Source of the DNA: Patescibacteria group bacterium
GTDB lineage: Bacteria > Patescibacteriota > Patescibacteriia > 2-01-FULL-39-33
Direction: 5' to 3'
NCBI GenBank assembly: GCA_041650895.1
Contig: JBAZKF010000001.1
Location: 509,006 to 573,005 of the forward strand
DNA: 64,000 nt
Below are positions 3,921-23,288 of the stretch, one piece after another. A program made the position numbers and the translations under genes. A model generated the notes under the pieces. That model saw nothing but the letters and a program-made list of their open reading frames with translations. It was not told where the DNA came from and did not search any database. Position 1 is the first letter of the stretch. Each line of letters begins with the position of its first letter.

Positions 3921-4003
3921 TGCCGAAGGGGAGACTCGAACTCCCACGGGACAAGCCCACATGCTCCTAAGGCATGCGTGTATACCAATTTCACCACTTC
4001 GGC
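3921..4003 (-). tRNA. tRNA-Leu (anticodon UAG)
   Basis: Reverse complement reads GCCGAAGTGGTGAAATTGGTA...CATGC-CTTAGGA-GCATG with a long variable arm (TGGGCTTGTCCCG) and a T-arm GGGAG-TTCGAGT-CTCCC. Type II tRNA with anticodon TAG; CCA is not encoded. Confidence 0.85.
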
Positions 4004-10900: not shown

Positions 10901-13900
10901 TCATTCTTCGTTTCCTAGGTCAATCTGAGGAGCGGCGGCAACCGTTACTGTTGTTGATCCATTGCCTATTTGACCCGATCCCGTAGCAGTCAATTCACCG
11001 ATCACCGACATTATCTCCGGATTAGACGGTTCTCCGGCCATGGGATTTGCTGGTTGGATTGTTCCCATACCTTTAGAACCAGCCGTTCCATTTGCTCCCA
11101 AAACGACCGGTGGACCGATAACCCCAGTAACCGACAACGGGGTAGAACTAACAAAAAACGGATCGCTACCGGAAGAGTCAGCTGTTGTTGAGGAGTTATT
11201 TTGTAAAAAAATCGGCGAACTACTGCTTAAAACAATATTCATTTCATCATTAACAACTATATCACCCAAGTCGTCGGTATTATTATCTGAAGTCTCATCA
11301 TCGCTTTTAACCGCCAGAGCATGCCAATTAAATCTCATCTCCTCTGTAAACGGCAGATCGACTGCAACAATAAAGCCGGTGGAGCTTTGCGCTTCTATCC
11401 AATAATCATGCCCGGAAACATTAAGTAAGGGGGTCAGCGTGATTATCGGATCAACATCATAGGGCTTAGCAAAATGAACAGCGGTAGAGGTTGCACCGGC
11501 AGACAACTTAACTGTGCCAGCCGCATCCTTATCCAAATAAATATGATCCTTAAACACCACCTTTGATTCAAATCCTGCTTCGCCGATAACTGTGATGGTA
11601 CCGTAAAAAGTGGCTGAAGAATTTACCGCTAATGAATCCAATACTTCTAAATCATCAAGCGGAGAGTCGTCAACAACTAAGGCCGACTCAGTGCTGGAAG
11701 CGATAATTCCGGATAATTGAGCGGACAGAACCCCAAGTTCTTGCTCCTGACGCTGAGCAACCTGCAATAAATAAAATGGCAGATGGTCGGCGCGATAGCC
11801 CTTGGTTCGGCCGTCATCAAGATATAATTCCGGCAAAGCATCTCTGATTTCTTCGGCGATCAAACCAAAGTCAGTCTGCCCGGTCTGTTTCCAGATAAAC
11901 GATTTGACTTGCAATCCCAATAAAGCGTCGATATTCAAGCTAGTATCAATGATATCATCTTTATACTCTCGAGATGACGGATTAACATTAGTCAAAGTTC
12001 CGTTATTGGAATAAACAGCGCCATTGGTATCTAAGGTGGAAATATTTACGGTTTTAGCTTCAGCATCAAAGGTAACAAAAGGCAGACCGTCATTATAATC
12101 AAGCCATTGATAACTTTTAGCGCTATCAAAAGACAATAACTCAGTTGAGGTAGTAAAATAAATATCCGCAGCCGACGAAAAATCTGAGGCAAAAAAGCTA
12201 ACATGAGCATCACGATTAGTTGAGAAAACTGCGAGATGATCTTTTATACCCACTAAATCCATATCGGATCCAAAAACAGCAGAAGTAGAAGCATGACCGG
12301 AAATCATTGGAACATCCATGAGGCCTTTATTTATATAGAACTTGAGCCCATAATTGCCATCATTTGTGAGTTGGAGCCAATCATTAGGCGATGTAACGGT
12401 TAATTTATGAGTTGGGGTAGTGGTGACAACACCAATGGTCGTAGTAGAATTTAGATTCGTCTCACCGGCAACCTTAAGCCCGCCACTGCCGATTATCACT
12501 CCGAAAAACTTGCCCAAACCGACGGTTATCAAATCCCTTAACACCTGTAAACCGCCAGACACTAACGAGCCAACCCTGGCGGTCGGCGTATCCAATCCCG
12601 GAAGCTTTATAATCACTAACCTATTGGGGCTTACAGACAATGGCAAATAAGCCCTGTTCCCGGAGACTTCCACTCCCCAAGGATTGCCCAAGGTGCTGAT
12701 TGAATCAACAAAATACGGATTATACGGGTCAGAAATGTTAATAATTTTCAAAGCTGCACCCTTATTATCAACAACATAAGCATAATCACCTTGAACCGAT
12801 AAGCCGGTAGATCCTGAAAAATCATTTATATCCTTGTAAAATTCCAACTGAGACCCTCCAACAATTACCGGATTAGTGGAAGAAGAAATGTCAATAATCC
12901 TAAATACCTCGGTAGAAGTGACCCCAATGTCTATAGGCGGTCCAAAGCAGTCATGAGTGGTATAAGCATAACTACCCTTAACAACCACATCCCGGCCTAA
13001 CGGCGGCATATCCAATAAATCACCGCCAACAACAATCGGATTAACCGGATCAGAAATATCAACGATCCTGAATACATTAGTTGAAGTAGCAACATAACTG
13101 ACGGTGTAGGCGTATTTTCCCTGAACATCAATGCCCCGAGTCTCACCGGGGAAATTAGTAACGGGATTACTGATTCTCCTTGGCTTGGAAGGATTAGACA
13201 CATTGATGATTTGCAAACCATCTTCACCGGTTAAGAGACTGGAGTAATAAGCGGTATAAAGCAAACCGTCTATGACTTTTAATTTTCTTAAAGCATAATT
13301 AGCGATATAATCTTCTCCAACCTTTTCCACTGGATTAGTCGGATCGGAAATATCCAAAATAGATAAAGTATTAGTGCTTTGATAAGAGTACTCCTCAAAT
13401 CCGATATAAGCGTATTTCCCATCAATATCAATGCATCTGGCTCCCAAACCGGCACCCGGCCTCAAAGCAAAACTATCATTTACTATAATCGGATTATCAG
13501 GATTGGAAATATCAAAAATTCTTAACTTGTTAGTAGAGGTCGGAGATTGTAATACTACATAGAGATAATCGCCATAAACCATGGAGTTAGATGCCCCGCC
13601 ATGAACTTCTGGCAAAGAAGTAGTAACATAACTTGGAGCTGAATAAAGCAAAGTGGAAGTAGCAATTTTTAGGTTAGAAAGATAAGGCGAAGAAGTCACA
13701 CCGACCAAGCCATTAGTTGCCTGTAAAACTCCGTTTAAACTGCCAATGGTAAGGTCGCCAGAAAGATAAGGCGAAGAAGTCACACCGACCAAGCCATTAG
13801 TAGCTTGCAGGATGCCGTTTAGACTGCCAACGACTAAATTAGTAGTAGTAGTGATTCCCGCTACCTGCAAATCTCCACCAAAGTAATTCTTGCCATTTGT

Positions 13901-16900
13901 AGAGTAAATGGCATAGTTATTGGTTGCTCCCATTGAATCAACGTCGTCAATTCTTAAAGCTGAGTAATCACCTGTAATTGTTCCGCCGTCATTAGTGCTG
14001 ATAATATGCACATTGTCTAATATGCCAGTGAATATTCCGTCATTCTCCAATTCAAAGTTGGCGTTATCAACATAGCCGTTAGTGGATATATTTGAATCAA
14101 CATCAAAAACAGTTCTAAATCTATTAGAATCAGCTACAAGAAACCCAGAATTATTGGCGTAAGTCGTTTCCCAGTTATTACCGTAATAAACTGAAGCATC
14201 ATTAGTTGAAGAAGAGTTAACAGTAACCGAGGAATAAATACTTCCAAGACCAAGACTTAATCCACCGCCAATATCAGCCCAATTATTTTCTTCTACTGTT
14301 CTTACAAAAGCATTTAGACCTCCAAAGATAGAAGCTAATACATTATAAAAAGGAAAGGCACTAATGACTGAACCTGCTCCGACTAACGTCTGGTCGCCTA
14401 CTAATAACTGATTGATAGTGGTAGTGGCCAGAGTGGAAGTTTCCGAAGCTCGGAAACTCTTGGCATAGATACTGGCTGAACTGCTGGCATTGCCATTAAT
14501 TGTTAAGAGAGTGGTGGAAACCGTGCCATAAACATCCAAAGCCGTTTCGGGCAATGATTTACCGATACCCACCTTGCCAGCAAAATAATTTTGAGTGTTG
14601 GAACCTCCCGACCAGATATTGTAATTAAGATTTGATGCTGAAGTGATGCCTTCGGTATAAAAACCATACGCATTCTCTGCTCCATCATTTCCAACATTCC
14701 TTATATTAATACCCTTATAATTTATAGGATGAAAATTTACATCGCTAATAATATCCAAATCAAGTCCGATGGCGTCGGTTACGGTTATTGTCGTATTTGA
14801 GGCATTAATAACATCAAAAAAGTTATTTCTGCCATGAAAGGCAGAAAATTCACTAATCGTCAAAGTCTGGCCACCGTTTGATACCCCCGCCTCTCCATAA
14901 CTGCCCCAGATTTGGTCGACAATTCCAGCTCCGTTGTCATAAACATAATTTCTACTACCAATCAGGCGATTATCGGTTGTTGTTCCGTCATTAATTACTC
15001 CAATTTCAGCTCCGTGAACTCGGTATAAATCACCGTTGAAATCACTGGGTATTCTTGTTGTCATACCCATGGTAGCGACAATTATTGAATCAGTCGGTGT
15101 ATTAAGGTAAGATTCAAATTCAATTTGATGAGAACCGTACTGGTAATAATCCTGGTTGGTAACAACTCTTAAAACCTGATTGCTCCCTTTAAGGGTAGTG
15201 GTTCCATTGACATTCAACCCCCGATCAAAGTTATAATTGGTTGCTCCGGTGATACCAAGTGCCCCAGCATTCGAATTTCCCCAGGGGTCGGTTGAAGTTT
15301 CTTGTATAGTCGCTATGTCATCTAAAATTGAAATCCTATCAGCATACAAATCAGATGTCGTAACTACCCCCACCACCCGTAAATCTCCGCCAAAATAGTT
15401 CTTGCCATTTGTAGAGTAAATGGCATAGTTATTGGTGGCACCCATTAACAGAACATCGTCAATTCTTAATGCCGAGTAATCACCTGTAATTGTTCCGCCG
15501 TCATTAGTATTAATAATATGCACATTGTCTAATCTGCCAGTGAATATTCCGTCATTCTCTAACTCAAAATTGACGTTATCAATATAACCGTTAGTAGATA
15601 TATTGGAGCCTGCATCAAAGAGTGTTTTGAATCTGTTAGAGTCGGCAACCGTAAACCCAGAATTATTGGCGTAAGTCGTTTCCCAGTTATTACCGTAATA
15701 AATTGAACTATCGTTAGTTGAAGAAGAATTGACATTGACTGAAGAGTAAACACTGCCAAGACCGATGCTAGTACCACCCCCATAATCAAGCCAGCTGCTT
15801 TCTTCTATGTTGTTTAATAAACCGGTTATACCGCCAAAAAGCGAAGAAAATAAATTATATAATGCTGAAACACTAAATGCCGAACCTGCTCCGACTAACG
15901 TCTGGTCGCCTGATAACAATCGATTGATGGTAGTAGTAGCCAGAGTAGAAGTGCCGGAAACGGATAATTCCCCGGTCAAGTCCAAACCGGCAAAAGTCGG
16001 GGTATTGGTTGTATCCAGCCATTGGTCAAAAGGGTTCTTGGCTGTAGCCACTAAATAAGAAGCGTCAAAATTGCTTTGGAACCCCGCCCACGTCGTCGTA
16101 GTGTTCCAAAAATACTGTTCGGAAGTGGTAGACCATCTAATTTGCTGAGTCTCCCAATAATCAGCAGATGTAGTGGAAAAAAAGTTGGTTATTGACTTCC
16201 AATAGTCACTGGAACTGGTAGACCAATTGCCGGCTAAAGTGGAAATATCCGACCAATCATTGATATAAACTCCATTCAAACCGGCGACGGTCCCCAAGTA
16301 AGAAGAGTTAGTGGTCGTGGCTGATCCGGTCACCGAAAGATTGCCATTAATGGTAGTAGCGGCTAATTGGGTATTGCCCAAAACACCTAGATTACCGGTA
16401 GTAGTAACGTGATTATCAAAGTAATAGCCGCCGGAGGCGTTTTCAAAAATCAATCTATCAGTGGAAGAATTCAAGTAAATATCAGAAGTAGTGACACTAT
16501 TGGCACTAAAAGTCAGTTTAGGATTCTGGGATATAGAAACATTAATTAGGTTACCACTAGCTAAAGAAATTTTTTCAAAGTCCTTGGCCGCGCCGACACT
16601 GTTATTAGAAACAAAAATCAAATGTTGAGTGGTGGTCTGGTAGCCTATTGTGGCTATACTATCATTATCATAAGAGCCAAATAATATCATGGGACTTTGA
16701 TCGGGCTGAGTATTCCAAATATAGGACGAGTCTTTAAAGCCAAAAACGTCAGTCAGAATAACGTTGGTGCCACTAGCAAAAGCCCCTGACGGGATGGTAT
16801 AACCGTAGATTTTGCCTTGAACAGTATCATTAAAAAAGGAAAAGGTGGTTGTTGCCAGGGTAGTAATACCCTGAGAAGCAAAACTTTCAGTAGAAGTTGC

Positions 16901-17806
16901 CCGAGTTGCGGTCAAATCTGTGATACTGGCAATGGTGGCGACCAAATTAGTGAATAAACCGGAGATAGCATTAAAGACGGAAGTGTAAAAATCAGTCGTG
17001 GTGGCTTGAGTTATAGAAGCGTAAGTAGAAAACAAATTAGTGGAAGTAGCATTTATCGCCAAGGTGGAGGAGGCGCTTAAATTCTTGATATTGGCAGTTG
17101 AAGTAACCGATAAATCGGTAACAGCCAAAGTACCGCCTGTCGCATCACCAAAAACCAAAGTAGAAATATTGGCTATAGTAGCCGTTAAACTACTGATAAT
17201 GGAAGATATGGCGCTAAGAGCCGCGGCGAAAAAATTAGTGCTGGTGGCATTAGTAATTGAGGCGTTGCTGGCAAAAAAATTGGTGGAAGTCAAATTAGTT
17301 ATGGTGGCGCGATCATTAGCCATGTCCGCCCTTAAAAAAGAGGTGGTAGCCAAGCCGTCAAATTCCAAGGTGTTAAGGGCGTTCGGCACAGCGCCCAGAC
17401 GTTTTCTGGGGGTAAGGGTTTCCCCGTCAACGGCTACTTCTAAATATATGTCTTGATTAAAATCCACCGAAGACAAAGAAGTAACCGACCCTAACATAAC
17501 TGAAAACAAACCATTGGCAACCGCCACTTGATCAGCGCCGGTTCGCGTTTCCGTCCAAAGCACCGAAGAACAAGATGAATCGGCACATAATCTAAACACC
17601 ATATCGTAATCACCATCAGCCACTGGACTATCGCTATGGTCAGTTAGCTTGCCTTGATAATTTATTTGCTGATTAAATGAAGCATTGGCTTGGGAGACAA
17701 CAAAAAACAGGGAAAACACAGCAAAACAAGCCATGATAACCCTAATCATCAGGTACTTAAAAGAATTTTGGTGTGTTTTTGTCACCATGCCAAAATGTTT
17801 ACGCAT
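10901..17806 (-). CDS. giant secreted/surface protein (2301 aa) with LVIVD-type beta-propeller repeats and a tail-fibre-like intramolecular chaperone (Peptidase_S74-like) motif
   Basis: N-terminal signal/TM segment (MACFAVFSLFFVVSQANA). Thr/Ser/Asn-rich beta-type sequence with internal duplications. Repeated G[KD]YAY...ID(I)SxPxNP units, and an SSREYKDDI...GLIAEEIRDALPELY motif. Confidence 0.75.
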   Translation of the reverse strand: MRKHFGMVTKTHQNSFKYLMIRVIMACFAVFSLFFVVSQANASFNQQINYQGKLTDHSDSPVADGDYDMVFRLCADSSCSSVLWTETRTGADQVAVANGLFSVMLGSVTSLSSVDFNQDIYLEVAVDGETLTPRKRLGAVPNALNTLEFDGLATTSFLRADMANDRATITNLTSTNFFASNASITNATSTNFFAAALSAISSIISSLTATIANISTLVFGDATGGTLAVTDLSVTSTANIKNLSASSTLAINATSTNLFSTYASITQATTTDFYTSVFNAISGLFTNLVATIASITDLTATRATSTESFASQGITTLATTTFSFFNDTVQGKIYGYTIPSGAFASGTNVILTDVFGFKDSSYIWNTQPDQSPMILFGSYDNDSIATIGYQTTTQHLIFVSNNSVGAAKDFEKISLASGNLINVSISQNPKLTFSANSVTTSDIYLNSSTDRLIFENASGGYYFDNHVTTTGNLGVLGNTQLAATTINGNLSVTGSATTTNSSYLGTVAGLNGVYINDWSDISTLAGNWSTSSSDYWKSITNFFSTTSADYWETQQIRWSTTSEQYFWNTTTTWAGFQSNFDASYLVATAKNPFDQWLDTTNTPTFAGLDLTGELSVSGTSTLATTTINRLLSGDQTLVGAGSAFSVSALYNLFSSLFGGITGLLNNIEESSWLDYGGGTSIGLGSVYSSVNVNSSSTNDSSIYYGNNWETTYANNSGFTVADSNRFKTLFDAGSNISTNGYIDNVNFELENDGIFTGRLDNVHIINTNDGGTITGDYSALRIDDVLLMGATNNYAIYSTNGKNYFGGDLRVVGVVTTSDLYADRISILDDIATIQETSTDPWGNSNAGALGITGATNYNFDRGLNVNGTTTLKGSNQVLRVVTNQDYYQYGSHQIEFESYLNTPTDSIIVATMGMTTRIPSDFNGDLYRVHGAEIGVINDGTTTDNRLIGSRNYVYDNGAGIVDQIWGSYGEAGVSNGGQTLTISEFSAFHGRNNFFDVINASNTTITVTDAIGLDLDIISDVNFHPINYKGINIRNVGNDGAENAYGFYTEGITSASNLNYNIWSGGSNTQNYFAGKVGIGKSLPETALDVYGTVSTTLLTINGNASSSASIYAKSFRASETSTLATTTINQLLVGDQTLVGAGSVISAFPFYNVLASIFGGLNAFVRTVEENNWADIGGGLSLGLGSIYSSVTVNSSSTNDASVYYGNNWETTYANNSGFLVADSNRFRTVFDVDSNISTNGYVDNANFELENDGIFTGILDNVHIISTNDGGTITGDYSALRIDDVDSMGATNNYAIYSTNGKNYFGGDLQVAGITTTTNLVVGSLNGILQATNGLVGVTSSPYLSGDLTIGSLNGVLQATNGLVGVTSSPYLSNLKIATSTLLYSAPSYVTTSLPEVHGGASNSMVYGDYLYVVLQSPTSTNKLRIFDISNPDNPIIVNDSFALRPGAGLGARCIDIDGKYAYIGFEEYSYQSTNTLSILDISDPTNPVEKVGEDYIANYALRKLKVIDGLLYTAYYSSLLTGEDGLQIINVSNPSKPRRISNPVTNFPGETRGIDVQGKYAYTVSYVATSTNVFRIVDISDPVNPIVVGGDLLDMPPLGRDVVVKGSYAYTTHDCFGPPIDIGVTSTEVFRIIDISSSTNPVIVGGSQLEFYKDINDFSGSTGLSVQGDYAYVVDNKGAALKIINISDPYNPYFVDSISTLGNPWGVEVSGNRAYLPLSVSPNRLVIIKLPGLDTPTARVGSLVSGGLQVLRDLITVGLGKFFGVIIGSGGLKVAGETNLNSTTTIGVVTTTPTHKLTVTSPNDWLQLTNDGNYGLKFYINKGLMDVPMISGHASTSAVFGSDMDLVGIKDHLAVFSTNRDAHVSFFASDFSSAADIYFTTSTELLSFDSAKSYQWLDYNDGLPFVTFDAEAKTVNISTLDTNGAVYSNNGTLTNVNPSSREYKDDIIDTSLNIDALLGLQVKSFIWKQTGQTDFGLIAEEIRDALPELYLDDGRTKGYRADHLPFYLLQVAQRQEQELGVLSAQLSGIIASSTESALVVDDSPLDDLEVLDSLAVNSSATFYGTITVIGEAGFESKVVFKDHIYLDKDAAGTVKLSAGATSTAVHFAKPYDVDPIITLTPLLNVSGHDYWIEAQSSTGFIVAVDLPFTEEMRFNWHALAVKSDDETSDNNTDDLGDIVVNDEMNIVLSSSSPIFLQNNSSTTADSSGSDPFFVSSTPLSVTGVIGPPVVLGANGTAGSKGMGTIQPANPMAGEPSNPEIMSVIGELTATGSGQIGNGSTTVTVAAAPQIDLGNEE
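11800..11980 (-). other. Peptidase_S74 / intramolecular chaperone auto-processing-like motif inside the giant protein
   Basis: SSREYKDDIIDT...FGLIAEEIRDALPELY matches the SD(R/K)xLKxNI ... GxIAQEV..xxPExV signature of endosialidase/tail-spike C-terminal chaperone domains. Confidence 0.5.
12560..13650 (-). repeat. LVIVD-like beta-propeller repeat region (protein level)
   Basis: At least six blades: GKYAYIG/ILDISDPTNP, GKYAYTVS/IVDISDPVNP, GSYAYTTHD/IIDISSSTNP, GDYAYVVDN/INISDPYNP, GNRAYLPL. Confidence 0.5.
13676..13838 (-). repeat. in-frame tandem duplication, 2 x ~84 bp (28 aa: IGSLNGvLQATNGLVGVTSSPYLS..)
   Basis: agaaagataaggcgaagaagtcacaccgaccaagccattagt... occurs twice back to back with a few substitutions. 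Confidence 0.7.
13861..14470 (-). repeat. intragenic ~610-bp direct repeat, copy 2
   Basis: About 85-90% nt identity to 15364-15990 by eye. Encodes TSTLATTTINQLLVGDQTLVGAGS...YAIYSTNGKNYFGGDL. Confidence 0.65.
15364..15990 (-). repeat. intragenic ~610-bp direct repeat, copy 1
   Basis: Encodes SVSGTSTLATTTINRLLSGDQTLVGAGS...YAIYSTNGKNYFGGDL. Paralogous to 13861-14470, about 0.9 kb away in the same ORF. Confidence 0.65.
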
Positions 17807-17968: not shown

Positions 17969-20701
17969 TTAGCCGAATAATCCTTCTTTATCTTCTGGTT
18001 CTTTTGACTGCGTCGGCTGATTATCAGCGATCGGCGGAACATTGGTAAATTGACTCTCATTAACCGGCCTTGTTTCTTCTGAGACTTCTTTAATAAGCGT
18101 ATTTTCTGAGGGCACGGCCGATTGATCGGTTTCTTGAGTCTCAACTGCTTCCATTATTTGTTCCTTTCCCTGTTTTAAACCGATATTCTGTTTAACCACG
18201 GCTTCGGCCGCGGTCTGGCCGGTTAAATCGATTATTGGGGTCTTAGCTTGGGCATAGCCGTCCTTGCTGGCAGTCAAATAATACTTATTATTTTCCGCCA
18301 AAAACCCATATTCACCGCGATTATTAGTCACATAGAACTCCAACATACGGCCGTATTCGGGAGAGAAAATCCTAATCACCGCTTTGGCCAAAGATTTCTT
18401 ATTGGTCAAGTCATAAACCCTGCCCCAACTGCGTTTTCCTTTGGGTTTATCGGCTAGACGCTTAAAAATCAAAAGTAGCGATAGATGTAAAGCTAAAATC
18501 AAAGCGGAAAAAATAGAAGGATAAATAAAAGCATAGATAAAGGCCAAAATGGGACCGATTAAACTAAGACTGGCCGCCCAATACCCCTTGCGAAACTTCG
18601 CTATAGCCTGTTTATCTGTTATCGCCAAATTCTTATCCGAATCCAACGGAATATTCGGAGCTATCGTACCCATTGAACCGGCGGGAATATTGATGGTTTC
18701 ACCAAAATACAAGTCCAGATACTGGCCATCTGACTTTTTGCCGGCTAAAATCTCCGAGGGATAAATAAAACCAGACTTTTCAACCCTAATGACGTACTGG
18801 CCTTCCGGAGCAAAGAAAATAAATCTTCCGAATTTATCAGTTACCCGAGAAGTCACTAAGCGGTCAGTCGCCTTGTTGTATAAGCGGACCAGCGCCAAAT
18901 CAACTGGTTTCTTGGTGATAGAATTGAACACTACACCCCAATCCTTACGACGTCGCCGAAACAAGAAAAGCCAAGGTTGGGTAAATAAGAATTGCAAAAT
19001 AGAGAAACTCCAAAAAGGCACAACTAAACTGACATTAATCAAGGCTAAGCCCACGGTTACCTGAGCGATTATTTTGCCCATCGGCGACTGGGCGATATCT
19101 CTGATCGGCGTTAAAAATTCCGCCATTGCCCTTAGTAAAGCGACGCCTGGCAGTTGTTCTATGATTTCTAACGGCCTAACCAAAGCGACTGACACTAACC
19201 AACCAGATACTTCCGCCAACTGAGCTCCAATGGAATCTTGCGCGGAAAATCTTAAATCATAACGGCCGGCCGGTATGGGAGAAAATTGAGCGGCATAAGT
19301 ATTACTGACGGCATCATAGGTTAAAAAATAAACATAATTATTGACGGCCGAGGATAAATCCATCTTGATCCTATCCGTACCCCCGGGAACTTTATCGGCG
19401 GCGATATAAACAGTGATCATCCCACCGTCAGCAGAAACAGTGACCGTACCATCGGCGGAAAAAACACTAATTGACTCATCTTGGCTAAAAATAAAATCGC
19501 CTAAATTGATCTGTGGCGGAATGATTGGCGGAGTCGTCGTCGGTGTGGTGGTCGGAATAATCGGCGGAGTAGTGGTCACAGTGAAGGGCACGCCATTGAT
19601 GCCGACACCACTGGAATAAAAACCAAAAGAATTAAAAGAAAAAATCGAATAGTAATATCTGGTACCGTTAACCAAGCCGGGATTAGCCAGACTGACTCGC
19701 CCGTCCGGAACTGACTCGCCCAAACCGCTGTATATGGCTATACCGGAAGTTAACGAGGGGTAACCCAAGGTAGAGCGACGGATGTACGCGCCGGTAAAAT
19801 CCGGCTCCGCTGGGTTGCGCCAAAATAAAGTCAAGATACTGTCACCCTCAACTATGCTCAAATCAGTCACATTGGATGGTGTGGTTGTCGGAGTGGTAGT
19901 AGGAGAGCTTATGGGCACACCGCTAATACTGGCGCCGGAAGCAAAATTACCGATAGAATCATAAGCAAAAGCAGTATAATAGTATCTCGTGCCATTAATC
20001 AAGCCGGTGTTTAAAAAGCTGATTTCCGGACTGACGGCCGGCTCGCCCCAGCCGTCATAAACCAATACGCCCGAAGCTAAAGCGGGATAATCAACGGTGG
20101 AACGCCTAATAGTGACGCCGGCAAAGTCAGTACTGGTGGGGTTCTGCCAGAATAGGGTTAATCGGCTATCCCCGGCTACCAAACGCAAGCCGTCAACGTT
20201 GGCAATCAAAGCCGGCGTCGAAGCGCTCTTAGTGGTAAAATCATAATCACCCGTCTGAGCCGATCCGCCGGTTGTATTCTGGCAAGCAAGATAGAAATGA
20301 TATAGGGTTGCTTGACTAAGAGAGGTTATGGATGATGAATGGGCTGTTACGGGTGATACCTCAGCGGCTTGACCAGTCAAATAATCGGTGGTGGTACCCC
20401 AATGCAACTGACAATAAGCGGAACTATTAGTCTGCCAAGTAATCGTGGCTCCGCTAATCGTAGTCGTGGCCACTCTAACATCAGAAATTACAAAACCACC
20501 GCCGCAATCAGTGCAGGGAGGCGGGCAATCACTGGGACAATTATCATTAGTTTCTCCGGTTTCGCAAACGCCGTTATTATTACAGACGGAGGCAACGACC
20601 GACACGTCAACGCTAAAACTGTCACTGGAGGTTACAGCCGAAACCGTCAGCGGTAAAAGAGCAAGAAAAAGGATAAAAGCTATTTTTTTAACCGCTGGCA
20701 T
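17969..20701 (-). CDS. large surface/membrane protein (910 aa): FN3-like domains, T/P-rich linker, TM segments interleaved with CarboxypepD_reg-like domains, acidic C-terminal tail
   Basis: Signal peptide MPAVKKIAFILFLALLPLTVSA. Three FN3-like modules (TLFW(Q/R)NP...GTRYYY). TTTPPIIPTTTPTTTPPIIPP linker. Hydrophobic helices, and KFGRFIFFAPEGQYVIRVEKSGF / NNRGEYGFL...YYLTASKDGY beta-sandwich motifs. Confidence 0.7.
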   Translation of the reverse strand: MPAVKKIAFILFLALLPLTVSAVTSSDSFSVDVSVVASVCNNNGVCETGETNDNCPSDCPPPCTDCGGGFVISDVRVATTTISGATITWQTNSSAYCQLHWGTTTDYLTGQAAEVSPVTAHSSSITSLSQATLYHFYLACQNTTGGSAQTGDYDFTTKSASTPALIANVDGLRLVAGDSRLTLFWQNPTSTDFAGVTIRRSTVDYPALASGVLVYDGWGEPAVSPEISFLNTGLINGTRYYYTAFAYDSIGNFASGASISGVPISSPTTTPTTTPSNVTDLSIVEGDSILTLFWRNPAEPDFTGAYIRRSTLGYPSLTSGIAIYSGLGESVPDGRVSLANPGLVNGTRYYYSIFSFNSFGFYSSGVGINGVPFTVTTTPPIIPTTTPTTTPPIIPPQINLGDFIFSQDESISVFSADGTVTVSADGGMITVYIAADKVPGGTDRIKMDLSSAVNNYVYFLTYDAVSNTYAAQFSPIPAGRYDLRFSAQDSIGAQLAEVSGWLVSVALVRPLEIIEQLPGVALLRAMAEFLTPIRDIAQSPMGKIIAQVTVGLALINVSLVVPFWSFSILQFLFTQPWLFLFRRRRKDWGVVFNSITKKPVDLALVRLYNKATDRLVTSRVTDKFGRFIFFAPEGQYVIRVEKSGFIYPSEILAGKKSDGQYLDLYFGETINIPAGSMGTIAPNIPLDSDKNLAITDKQAIAKFRKGYWAASLSLIGPILAFIYAFIYPSIFSALILALHLSLLLIFKRLADKPKGKRSWGRVYDLTNKKSLAKAVIRIFSPEYGRMLEFYVTNNRGEYGFLAENNKYYLTASKDGYAQAKTPIIDLTGQTAAEAVVKQNIGLKQGKEQIMEAVETQETDQSAVPSENTLIKEVSEETRPVNESQFTNVPPIADNQPTQSKEPEDKEGLFG

Positions 20702-20703
20702 AA

Positions 20704-21459
20704 TTAATTGGTATAGGCGGTAAGAGTAACAGTGGCGCTGTAACTGCCTGCCGATTGATTGACGTCAGCGCCAGCCTCGGCACGCAATTTAATGGTTGTG
20801 GCAGTACCGACAACATCAGCCGCCGCTGATTGAGCAATGGTTTTATCGCTGGTTGTCAATTCATCCCAACAGGCATTGGGATTATCCGCTACTCCGCCGA
20901 TATTGCACGTCGCTCCGTCATCCCGATAGGTGGAAGTAATATCTGATCCTTCGGGAGTAAAACCAAAACCCGAAGCGGCAGATGTTACCGACCAGGTATA
21001 ATCAGGATCAGCGCCGGCCTTAACGTAGTCAGCAAAGCTGTTTATCCCAGAAACCAAGGCGGGGGCTGACCCGGCTTTAATCTGCAAAGTATAACCAAGC
21101 GCGCCGCTGGTCCTAACCGTCGCTATAGTGGAGCCATTGGCTATACCGCCTAAAGTTGAATTAATTGAAGGCGAAAGCGAAACGCTGGAATCAGCAACAG
21201 TTAAAGCGACATAAGTTGTTTCATCCAACTGCTGGAAGCCGGCGTTAGTTTGGTAAGTGGTGCTGGTGGAAAGACCGGTACCGATTTCACCGCCGGTTTG
21301 CTCTAAATCATAAGTGGTGGAGGTACTTAATCCGCCGATAAAATTAAGAGAATCACGTTGCAACTCATAATTGGTTGACGACATAACATAAGCCCAAACC
21401 GGCGAAGCGAAAGTAATTAAAAAAACAGCGATAATTAAAAAAAATATTTTATTTTTCAT
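20704..21459 (-). CDS. secreted Thr/Ser-rich protein, possible degenerate WxL-like surface domain
   Basis: Signal peptide MKNKIFFLIIAVFLITFASPVWA. YTWSV and SATVTLTAY segments sit where WxL motifs would be. Overlaps the downstream gene by 4 nt (ATGA). Confidence 0.45.
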   Translation of the reverse strand: MKNKIFFLIIAVFLITFASPVWAYVMSSTNYELQRDSLNFIGGLSTSTTYDLEQTGGEIGTGLSTSTTYQTNAGFQQLDETTYVALTVADSSVSLSPSINSTLGGIANGSTIATVRTSGALGYTLQIKAGSAPALVSGINSFADYVKAGADPDYTWSVTSAASGFGFTPEGSDITSTYRDDGATCNIGGVADNPNACWDELTTSDKTIAQSAAADVVGTATTIKLRAEAGADVNQSAGSYSATVTLTAYTN

Positions 21460-22397
21460 ATCGTTTTACTCTTACTCCGGCGTCGTTTCAGCCAAAAGAT
21501 AGCGCTGATTACCGCAATAACCGCGACAACAATTAGAATCGTAAAAATCCAAGACGGTAAAACCCAGAAACCAGCATAACTCTCGGTATAACTCTGGCCA
21601 TAACCGGGATTCAATAATAATTTGACGCGATACCAGCCGAATTTCGGCTGAGTGAACTCTAATGTCTGCGTTCGTGTCGTTTCCGGCATGACAAAGTAAG
21701 CGGGAATCTTTATTTTCTCTTTAGTCTGTCCTAAAAAATTCAATAAGGATATTTCTCCGGAGGGGTTTAAATAAATATTTCCGGTATTCTTAAAAGAAAA
21801 ACCGACTTTAACCGGGGCGGAGCTATTAAGGTTTTTCTCTGCTTTAAGGCCGGTTAATTCTCCTGATTCCTCAACCGCACCGCTGACTCGGACAAAATAG
21901 AGCGAGGCTAAGCGCGAAACCGGCTTGACCCGTCCGGCGCTATCTTCCGAATCCGCCACAGTAGGGGCGACTACACTGATTAGGACTGCGCCATAAAGCC
22001 CGCCAGGCGGGGCATCAATAGGCACCTTCACTTCTACTGGCAGTTCCATTCGTTCGCCATGCAGCAAGGAAAAGCTCATTACCTCTGGGTGTAAAAAATC
22101 CTTTAGGGAATATTGCCCTTTCTGCGCGCCCAGGAATTCCAAATCAACACCACTTTGAGCGGTAAAATCCTCCACAGCCACAGAAAAATTCAAGGGTTGG
22201 CCAGAACGATTGATGACCGCCACTAAGGTTTTCTCGTTTTGTCCCGGGTTCAGACGTAATTCTTTTTTTCCACCTTCCAGAACAAAATCATTAAAATTTC
22301 CTACGTTGGTTAGCGGAGTGACTGTATAAGCGGTAGAGCAAAGCGGAGCCAAAACCAGCAAACAAAAAGTTGCCAGCCAAATTGTTCGTTTAGGCAT
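21456..22397 (-). CDS. cell-surface protein with C-terminal TM anchor and basic tail (CscA / DUF916-DUF3324-like)
   Basis: Signal peptide, beta-rich ectodomain, then C-terminal LPSWIFTILIVVAVIAVISAIFWLKRRRSKSKTI (a TM helix plus a cationic tail). Confidence 0.5.
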   Translation of the reverse strand: MPKRTIWLATFCLLVLAPLCSTAYTVTPLTNVGNFNDFVLEGGKKELRLNPGQNEKTLVAVINRSGQPLNFSVAVEDFTAQSGVDLEFLGAQKGQYSLKDFLHPEVMSFSLLHGERMELPVEVKVPIDAPPGGLYGAVLISVVAPTVADSEDSAGRVKPVSRLASLYFVRVSGAVEESGELTGLKAEKNLNSSAPVKVGFSFKNTGNIYLNPSGEISLLNFLGQTKEKIKIPAYFVMPETTRTQTLEFTQPKFGWYRVKLLLNPGYGQSYTESYAGFWVLPSWIFTILIVVAVIAVISAIFWLKRRRSKSKTI

Positions 22398-22452
22398 AGA
22401 TATTATTTAACTTTCAATTATATTATAACACAGAAGCCGTGAGATGAGAAAA

Positions 22453-22905
22453 TTATTCAGCTTCTTGTCGATATGCTGACCAAACCAAGAAAATCAAACC
22501 GCCGACAATAGCGCAGTCAGCTAAATTGAAAATAGAAAAATATCGCACATCGATATAATCAATCACGCGGGCGTAATACAAACGATCAAGAAAATTAGAC
22601 CAAGCGCCGACCCAAACCAAAAGCAAAGACAACAATTGCCCACTGTTTTTACGACAAAAAAGTATTAGTCCGTAATAAGACAGTGCCCCAAAAGCCAACA
22701 GATATAAAATGATTATCAGCCAATAGTTAACCGGTAAGCCGAAAGCTACGCCAGAGTTAAAGGCCAAACGTAAACTTAACCATTGGCCAAGAGGAAAAAT
22801 GACCTCGGACCAAGAGTGAATAAACAGCCATTTAAGGCCGCGATCAAATATAAAAACCGCAATCGGCGCCAAAAGGGTAATTGCGGTTTTGAGATCTTTC
22901 ATCAT
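22453..22905 (-). CDS. lspA: lipoprotein signal peptidase II
   Basis: Conserved AFNSGVAFGL and FNLADCAIVGG motifs in four TM helices. The start is trimmed to the internal Met (M16 of the longest ORF, 22903-22905) so it does not overlap the DksA-like gene. Confidence 0.8.
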   Translation of the reverse strand: MMKDLKTAITLLAPIAVFIFDRGLKWLFIHSWSEVIFPLGQWLSLRLAFNSGVAFGLPVNYWLIIILYLLAFGALSYYGLILFCRKNSGQLLSLLLVWVGAWSNFLDRLYYARVIDYIDVRYFSIFNLADCAIVGGLIFLVWSAYRQEAE

Positions 22906-22910
22906 AAATC

Positions 22911-23288
22911 TTAACTTTGGCCTTTGAGCGATTTCTTGCAGGAAACGCAAGAAGTGGATTCGGGACGGATGGCTAGACGCCCGGCCTCAATTTCTTTGCC
23001 GCAATGCTTGCACTTGCCGTAAGTGCCTTCGACAATCTTCTTTAAGGCCTTCTCTACATCATGAAGATTATCCTCCAATTCATGTTCCAATGAAAGATTA
23101 GTGGCGTAATCAGAAACCTCAGAAGCGTTATCTTCAATTGACTGGCTATTGCCATAATCAGGAAAATCAGCGTTAAAATTGACTTCATCGCCTTCAGCGC
23201 GAGTGCCAATAGCATCCAAATGCTTGATGATCTCCGCTTTTTTGGCCTCGAGTTGTAATTTGAATTGTTGCAGTTGCTGATCATTCAT
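22911..23288 (-). CDS. DksA/TraR-family C4 zinc-finger protein
   Basis: Coiled-coil N-terminus and a C-terminal CKHCGKEIEAGRLAIRPESTSCVSC (CxxC-x17-CxxC) motif. Confidence 0.7.
   Translation of the reverse strand: MNDQQLQQFKLQLEAKKAEIIKHLDAIGTRAEGDEVNFNADFPDYGNSQSIEDNASEVSDYATNLSLEHELEDNLHDVEKALKKIVEGTYGKCKHCGKEIEAGRLAIRPESTSCVSCKKSLKGQS

Follow-up and report, generated by a model that had tools for sequence, protein, structure and literature searches.

The closest cellular analogue of the protein studied here is found among the mosaic adhesive trimer (MAT) fibres of Bdellovibrio, namely in the subgroup that carries a Peptidase_S74 (S74) domain. MAT proteins of Bdellovibrio bacteriovorus possess a signal peptide and a conserved, beta-rich N-domain of ~130 amino acids (aa) and form trimeric fibres; a terminal S74 domain with the motif SDxxxK is present in 13 of the 21 members, and self-cleavage at S782 was shown experimentally for Bd3182 (PMC10769870). 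The window investigated here, a 64,000-nt stretch of contig JBAZKF010000001.1 from a Patescibacteria group bacterium, contains a giant open reading frame (ORF) of 2,301 aa plus stop codon at positions 10901-17806 on the minus strand, corresponding to NCBI entry MFA5124683.1. Its product is a cellular, exported, very large surface protein of a Candidatus Buchananbacteria-like patescibacterium, and both profile searches and a modelled structure confirmed its residues 1944-2040 as a genuine phage-type S74 intramolecular chaperone domain.

Like the giant protein, the MAT S74 fibres are chromosomally encoded, non-phage bacterial surface fibres with a signal peptide. Both have a conserved beta-rich N-terminal domain (~100-130 aa), VGxGxxxPxxxL-type motifs in a long stalk and, in the S74 domain, a dyad spaced S-x4-K. 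MAT S74 proteins end in the S74 domain, whereas the giant protein continues with a linker, an H-type-lectin-like (HL) domain and a 130-aa acidic tail. It is about twice as long as a MAT and includes LVIVD repeats, and the phylum differs, as probably does the cell envelope. Contact with other cells is common to both lifestyles, Bdellovibrio being a predator and the patescibacterium a presumed episymbiont.

The same domain family, dyad, fold and following helix are known from the C-terminal intramolecular chaperone domains of phage proteins such as K1F endosialidase, T5 pb1 and S16 gp37 (PDB 3gw6, 4uw8, 6f45), with the same presumed role in trimer-dependent folding and self-release. These phage domains form the extreme C-terminus of a virion protein and are discarded, whereas in the giant protein, which is cellular and secreted, the S74 domain is internal and a conserved folded domain comes after it. 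An internal S74 domain with downstream domains is also found in MyRF (7dc3; PMC8326128). MyRF, however, is a membrane protein of the endoplasmic reticulum with a transmembrane (TM) helix after its domain for intramolecular chaperone auto-processing (ICA), and its cleavage frees a transcription factor, whereas the giant protein has no TM helix and is extracellular. MyRF is cleaved at P586|S587, S-to-A and K-to-A mutations abolish cleavage, and a trimer is required; its S587/K592 dyad is equivalent to S911/K916 of endoNF, whose catalysis involves a stalk arginine (PMC8326128).

The S74 domain and its Ser-Lys dyad

An initial annotation of the window, read from the bare sequence, had proposed a phage tail-spike-type chaperone motif at 11800-11980, ~360 aa before the C-terminus of a giant protein. 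The motif is real: the translated ORF contains NGAVYSNNGTLTNVNPSSREYKDDIIDTSLNIDALLGLQVKSFIWKQTGQTDFGLIAEEIRDALPELY, and the peptide SSREYKDD...DALPELY represents residues 1944-1995, running from window position 11977 down to 11822. The coordinates hold; the strand had to be corrected to minus, as all three plus-strand frames of 11800-11980 are full of stops and none contains such a peptide. All features of the gene given below lie on the minus strand. Ser1944 is located 358 residues from the C-terminus, in line with the proposed distance. It is encoded by a TCA codon (11975-11977) and is the predicted nucleophile, and Lys1949 (AAA codon, 11960-11962) is the predicted general base of the Ser-Lys dyad. 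The S74 core extends over aa 1944-2003 (11798-11977) and includes the conserved G1981-x-I-A1984-E-E...P1992. Cleavage is predicted at the Pro1943|Ser1944 bond, with the upstream side ending in ...GTLTNVNP and the downstream side starting with SSREYKDDIIDTSLNIDALLGLQVK; the residue before Ser1944 is Pro, as at the MyRF site P586|S587.

The assignment to S74 was borne out by hmmscan, in which residues 1944-1994 matched PF13884 Peptidase_S74 ('chaperone of endosialidase') with 26.1 bits against a curated gathering cut-off of 22 (E 1e-5), covering profile positions 1-56 of 58. PF13884 is also precomputed for eight of 12 homologues. A profile made from the region and its homologues (A3) matched solved S74 proteins, among them a phage tail fibre (8jov, 1e-8), a phage long tail fibre distal subunit with chaperone (6f45, 7e-8) and the ICA domain of MyRF (7dc3, 5e-6). 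The dyad, too, falls where it was expected: Ser1944 and Lys1949 align with the SDxxxK motif of the solved proteins, represented by SDERLK in 8jov, SDRRIK in 6f45 and ADLRAK in 7dc3, the last at the S587/K592 positions of MyRF in a chain that carries Ala at the Ser position. Residue conservation was read from 81 family sequences aligned to an S74 hidden Markov model (HMM) built in this analysis. Both dyad residues, with their S-x4-K spacing, are invariant in all 75 relatives that cover these columns, and Gly1981 and Ala1984 are kept in 79 of the 81 sequences and Pro1992 in 73. The modelled fold, with its long C-terminal helix, resembles that of the chaperones of MyRF and endosialidase. BFVD, a set of viral predicted structures, yielded 124 matches at E<=1e-3; of the 50 that were listed, those with names are for the most part S74 or ICA proteins.

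Taken together, the PF13884 match and the dyad alignment make a trimeric fibre whose self-cleavage would release a C-terminal region the best-supported reading, on grounds of homology. It is difficult to see why the dyad would be invariant in 75 of 75 relatives if it were not catalytic, and this speaks for retained cleavage. A chance resemblance of a short motif could be suspected from the shortness of the Pfam model (58 positions) and the modest score, but the independent profile, fold and conservation results agree with each other and refute this explanation, to which we give a negligible probability.

The segment beyond Ser1944 and its relatives

The C-terminal region that the initial annotation expected to be released is more than a chaperone. 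Its 358 residues consist of the S74 core, a long helix, a linker, a lectin-like beta-sandwich and a tail, and of these five parts the conserved HL domain had been missed; linker, HL domain and tail together account for the ~260 residues that follow the S74 domain. The S74 core is followed by its long helix (aa 2004-2040, 11687-11797). In an AlphaFold2 (AF2) model this helix occupies residues 121-155 (aa 2006-2040), with block means of the predicted local distance difference test (pLDDT) of 83-88 over residues 121-150. We predict that it forms a trimeric coiled coil, by analogy to MyRF, in which the equivalent coiled coil drives trimerisation (PMC8326128). The adjoining linker (aa 2041-2055, 11642-11686) is poorly conserved, with 33% identity to the orthologue and a pLDDT <50.

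The divergent HL domain (aa 2056-2169, 11300-11641) is modelled as a compact beta-sandwich with block-mean pLDDT values of 85-95, and this predicted fold matches the H-type lectin beta-sandwich. It is shared with Helix pomatia agglutinin, the C-domain of discoidin I/II, SLL-2 and the C-terminal knobs of tailspikes and R-pyocin fibres. H-type lectins and such knobs are trimeric in the cases familiar to us and often bind sugars. The copy in the giant protein is too divergent to be recognised by Pfam, with no match to PF09458 H_lectin at E<=10, unlike five of seven close homologues (best E 1.5e-5). The low-complexity, acidic tail (aa 2170-2301, 10904-11299) shows 46-51% identity to orthologues and is probably disordered. 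Tails across the family (n=129) are rich in E/T/P/S, and 126 of the 129 are without a TM-like segment; on inspection of 40 tail ends we noticed no LPXTG-type anchor, although no dedicated search was made. A small cysteine motif, GC(M/T)D..A.NY(N/D)..A..DDGSC.Y, occurs in at least one copy in the post-HL tails of many relatives (for instance P0016-P0019, P0023, P0026-P0028 and P0047) and is not found in the giant protein.

Compared with its orthologues, the giant protein shows 89% identity in the HL domain, 83-93% in the S74 core, 70-73% in the fibre and ~50% in the tail. Thus, the strongest constraint within the protein acts on a segment that lies downstream of the predicted cut. With a conserved HL domain after the serine, release of the C-terminal region would mean release of a second folded, probably functional, trimeric module.

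The HL domain is widespread. An exhaustive profile search recovered it from 3,051 cluster representatives at E<=1e-3 and from 790 at E<=1e-10, vs three proteins only when the same profile was used in a word-indexed homologue search. Of 150 listed HL proteins, 70 have lengths of 1,000-3,860 residues; the usual distance of the domain from the C-terminus is ~0-300 residues. In all, 121 listed proteins are informative about what precedes HL, each having >160 residues before it. According to HMMs that we built from few seeds, 66 have an S74 domain as in the giant protein, typically starting ~105-130 residues upstream of HL, ten a divergent S74-like domain, 35 a module of the Peptidase_G2 (G2) type and ten no recognisable module. 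The variant S74 domain of two relatives (P0109 and P0152) was confirmed by Pfam. A self-cleaving module, S74 or G2, therefore precedes HL in 111 of the 121 informative relatives, which places the HL domain almost always beyond a self-cleavage site, whichever of the two unrelated autoproteases provides it.

The third upstream module has the sequence GADxAExY...GRVPVKVSxENGxIxxGDxLTSS... and matched, in a PDB profile search, the released auto-chaperone of the phi29 pre-neck appendage gp12 (3gqh, E 1.3e-3). Its D-x-A-E motif is invariant in the G2-type relatives and aligned to the first residues of chain 3gqh. Pfam Peptidase_G2 ('IMC autoproteolytic cleavage domain') was detected in seven of 14 members when the excised module was searched (best E 9e-7), and a Pfam search of ten full-length relatives did not reveal it. 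The order of fibre, self-cleaving module, coiled coil and HL domain, with an auto-chaperone as in phi29 gp12 (PDB 3gqh, 3suc), is found in 35 of the 121 relatives. G2 is unrelated to S74 in fold and chemistry and is absent from the giant protein; its occurrence at the same position suggests that the two modules are functionally interchangeable in the HL family.

HL conservation downstream of the cut in ~3,000 clusters, behind two unrelated autoproteases, suggests a reusable assembly or release cassette, which could aid the annotation of many 'hypothetical' giant proteins as well as the engineering of trimeric fibres. We tentatively go one step further and propose, as a possibility that we would not yet favour, that patescibacterial giant fibres carry a portable, previously undescribed C-terminal cassette of autoprotease (S74 or G2), coiled coil, H-type lectin and acidic tail, with the lectin always on the released side, and that autoproteolysis might give rise to a pair of functional trimers, one a ~1,900-aa fibre and the other a lectin trimer. 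If so, the lectin trimer could serve outside the cell as a platform for assembly on the producer's wall, or could be a host-binding factor, and the two-trimer cassette would be a bacterial, extracellular counterpart of the 'cleave-to-release' logic of MyRF. In the literature searched, which was incomplete, we found no description of H-type lectins downstream of a self-cleavage site and no paper that connects S74 with Patescibacteria or with an H-type lectin downstream of it.

Proposed assembly, cleavage and fate of the fragments

Patescibacteria, or candidate phyla radiation (CPR), are mostly uncultured, and many of them are thought to live attached to other cells. We know of no explanation for how they build and display very large surface structures without periplasmic or ATP-driven chaperones. 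A 2,300-residue Sec substrate that carries a self-cleaving chaperone at its end would offer a concrete and testable assembly mechanism, which we outline by homology from endoNF, T5 pb1, MyRF and Bd3182. The giant fibre chains would be exported via Sec to the cell surface, where three C-terminal cassettes would come together by way of the S74 domain, the coiled coil and probably an HL trimer. The trimeric cassette would set the register and nucleate C-to-N folding of the trimeric stalk. The Ser1944/Lys1949 dyad, presumably competent only in the trimer, would then cut the Pro1943-Ser1944 bond to give a mature fibre of ~1,900 residues (N-terminal beta-rich domain, duplicated modules, LVIVD propellers and stalk) and a C-terminal trimer of the 358-residue fragment with S74, coiled coil, lectin-like domain and acidic tail.

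By analogy with these proteins, we consider it probable that the S74 domain is active and cleaves within a trimeric surface fibre. Several observations weigh against this. No equivalent of the catalytic stalk arginine of endoNF was identified in the giant protein, and the residue after Ser1944 is Ser where the canonical one is Asp, a substitution shared by 19 of 75 family members. The PF13884 score is just 4 bits over the cut-off, no PDB sequence was matched by phmmer with the C-terminal 416 aa as a single query, so that a profile was needed, and the upstream stalk is of low confidence in the monomer model, leaving a triple beta-helix putative. Furthermore, the best-conserved domain (HL, 89%) sits downstream of the cut, which is unexpected for a part to be discarded. 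Its conservation could mean that cleavage is regulated, that the products do not dissociate after cleavage, or that there is no cleavage.

The last of these options corresponds to an S74-like domain that acts as a structural trimerisation module only, with the lectin-like domain as the distal tip of an uncut fibre. A tip-like lectin distal to S74 makes most sense if it is still attached, tailspikes and pyocin fibres have similar folds at their distal ends, and position 2 of the motif is Ser, not Asp. Yet the dyad Ser and Lys are invariant in 75 of 75 relatives, and the G2-type relatives likewise keep their D-x-A-E motif invariant, so that we regard a non-cleaving module as quite unlikely. Regulated cleavage would turn the domain into a release switch as in MyRF: lectin-like domain and tail would hold the protein to the envelope of the producer, e.g., to a wall glycan, until S74 cleavage frees the fibre or the lectin trimer, again with two functional products. 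The internal position of S74, as in MyRF, fits this scheme, as do the conservation of the HL domain, the highest in the protein (89%), its similarity to H-type lectins and receptor-binding knobs, and its location downstream of a self-cleaving module of either protease type in 111 of 121 relatives. On the other hand, the family tails are without a TM segment, and we noticed no anchoring motif on inspecting 40 tail ends; the HL domain has no known ligand, and the copy in the giant protein reaches no Pfam H_lectin score. By analogy to MAT fibres, moreover, the conserved N-terminal domain is a likelier cell-proximal anchor. A switch of this kind thus appears doubtful, if less so than a domain that does not cleave at all.

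Returning to a cleaving chaperone of a trimeric fibre, the released lectin-bearing fragment may be an extended chaperone that is thrown away, may serve on the producer's wall as a platform for assembly, or may have a function of its own as a second product. For the fibre itself, the lifestyle of Patescibacteria and the Bdellovibrio analogy suggest a possible role in attachment to a host cell. The S74 domain links the giant patescibacterial proteins to the experimentally characterised MAT adhesins of Bdellovibrio. Its presence is probably reflected in the NCBI product name of MFA5124683.1, 'tail fiber domain-containing protein' [Patescibacteria group bacterium]. As the domain had already been captured by automated annotation, the gain is incremental, not fundamental; what is added here is the cellular context, the MAT-like architecture and the chaperone-plus-lectin cassette with its interchangeable S74 and G2 modules.

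Upstream architecture and genomic setting

MFA5124683.1, encoded on a 957,791-bp Patescibacteria contig, is identical to the giant ORF from Met25. The start codon is ambiguous (17735-17806): the NCBI start at Met25 gives 2,277 aa and another source has 2,295 aa. The N-terminal segment (aa 1-42, 17681-17806) reads like a signal peptide, with a basic stretch, the hydrophobic core IMACFAVFSLFFVVS and then QANA|S, after which we infer cleavage by signal peptidase; a basic n-region before the core exists only with a start upstream of Met25. The conserved, beta-rich N-terminal domain (INYQGKL..., aa ~43-140, 17387-17680) is well modelled, an AF2 model of aa 40-185 being all beta with mean pLDDT >=90 over model residues ~11-100. 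This domain opens 42 of the 70 long proteins that have the same C-terminal lectin-like domain. The named ones among its 46 homologues are mostly Patescibacteria, and no Bdellovibrio match is among them. Two matches, P0205 and P0206, are labelled Terriglobales and Zixibacteria, which points to mislabelling or mis-binning, or to an occurrence beyond Patescibacteria.

Further downstream, two segments are copies of each other (aa 617-857, 15236-15958, and aa 1121-1365, 13712-14446), with 166 of 245 positions identical (68%) in a local Smith-Waterman alignment; the repeat was not reported by self-BLAST. LVIVD repeats follow at aa ~1400-1750 (12557-13609, approximate boundaries), recognised by Pfam PF08309 in four stretches with 94.9 bits, a region that we take to be a beta-propeller. 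They and Peptidase_S74 are the only Pfam families found by hmmscan in the giant protein, and scans of the whole protein against NCBIfam and PHROGs returned nothing meaningful. The stalk before S74 (aa 1751-1943, 11978-12556) ends in ...NGAVYSNNGTLTNVNP. Its profile weakly matches the Bdellovibrio Bd3182 fibre 8ojn (E 0.026), and the 58 residues upstream of S74 have low pLDDT in the monomer model. Two VGxGxxxPxxxL-type motifs, VGIGKSLPETAL at aa 1079-1090 (about 14539-14572) and, within the stalk, IGVVTTTPTHKL at aa 1791-1802 (about 12403-12436), resemble the 'capping loop' consensus of Bdellovibrio MAT fibres and MyRF.

The neighbouring genes encode a class I (Trp/Tyr-type) tRNA synthetase, thioredoxin reductase, thioredoxin, a 910-aa CarboxypepD_reg protein, a weakly WxL-interacting-like protein, signal peptidase II (LspA) and a PF04452 RNA methyltransferase, with no phage gene among these flanking genes. 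This setting bears on the question of whether the giant gene could be a tail spike or fibre gene of a phage or prophage. S74 domains, H-lectin-like knobs and G2 modules are typical of phage fibres, and the NCBI product name points in the same direction. However, the gene context is a housekeeping one, and the synteny is repeated in a second metagenome-assembled genome (MAG; Candidatus Buchananbacteria, locus L019), where a 1,588-aa orthologue has reductase and synthetase ORFs downstream in the same order. The N-terminal signal peptide also argues against a phage gene, as do the lack of any PHROG match to the giant protein at E<=0.01, the lack of HL cassette relatives in IMG/VR in a pattern-based scan of limited sensitivity, and the presence of at least four paralogues on separate contigs of one MAG. 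We therefore rejected a prophage origin, which is highly improbable. Of the phrase 'phage tail-spike-type' in the initial annotation, the chaperone domain survives on the strength of PF13884 and the profile matches, and the phage spike gives way to a chromosomal cell-surface protein. The BFVD matches were S74-only or knob-only, and of the 50 best-listed none convincingly covers S74 together with HL.

The L019 orthologue is 68% identical to the giant protein over the last 1,024 residues (from aa ~1311) and only weakly similar (29%) over aa 145-495; it is ~700 residues shorter. Relatives of the C-terminal module were located at 20 loci of a species-level genome collection, largely in Patescibacteria and mostly in Candidatus Buchananbacteria, with five loci labelled Gammaproteobacteria and one labelled 'bacterium'. 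The 'uncultured Gammaproteobacteria' loci (L003, L005, L015 and L020 being named) may be due to mislabelling or mis-binning, or else the HL cassette occurs outside Patescibacteria. The paralogues with the HL cassette in a single MAG (Candidatus Buchananbacteria bin-7222; L007, L008, L010 and L014) suggest that its set of fibres has diversified, comparable to the 21 MATs of Bdellovibrio.

A run of probable envelope genes (17969-22950, minus strand) lies directly upstream of the giant gene and may represent a surface-protein gene cluster. The 910-aa protein in this run combines CarboxypepD_reg domains with a weak, sub-threshold match to the N-terminal domain of purple acid phosphatase; a 313-aa protein shows weak similarity (24 bits, under the cut-off) to the WxL-interacting peptidoglycan-binding domain, a 251-aa protein has no Pfam match, and the gene for signal peptidase II also belongs to the run. 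The only tRNA gene in the 64-kb window is a tRNA-Leu (anticodon TAG) at 3921-4003 on the minus strand.

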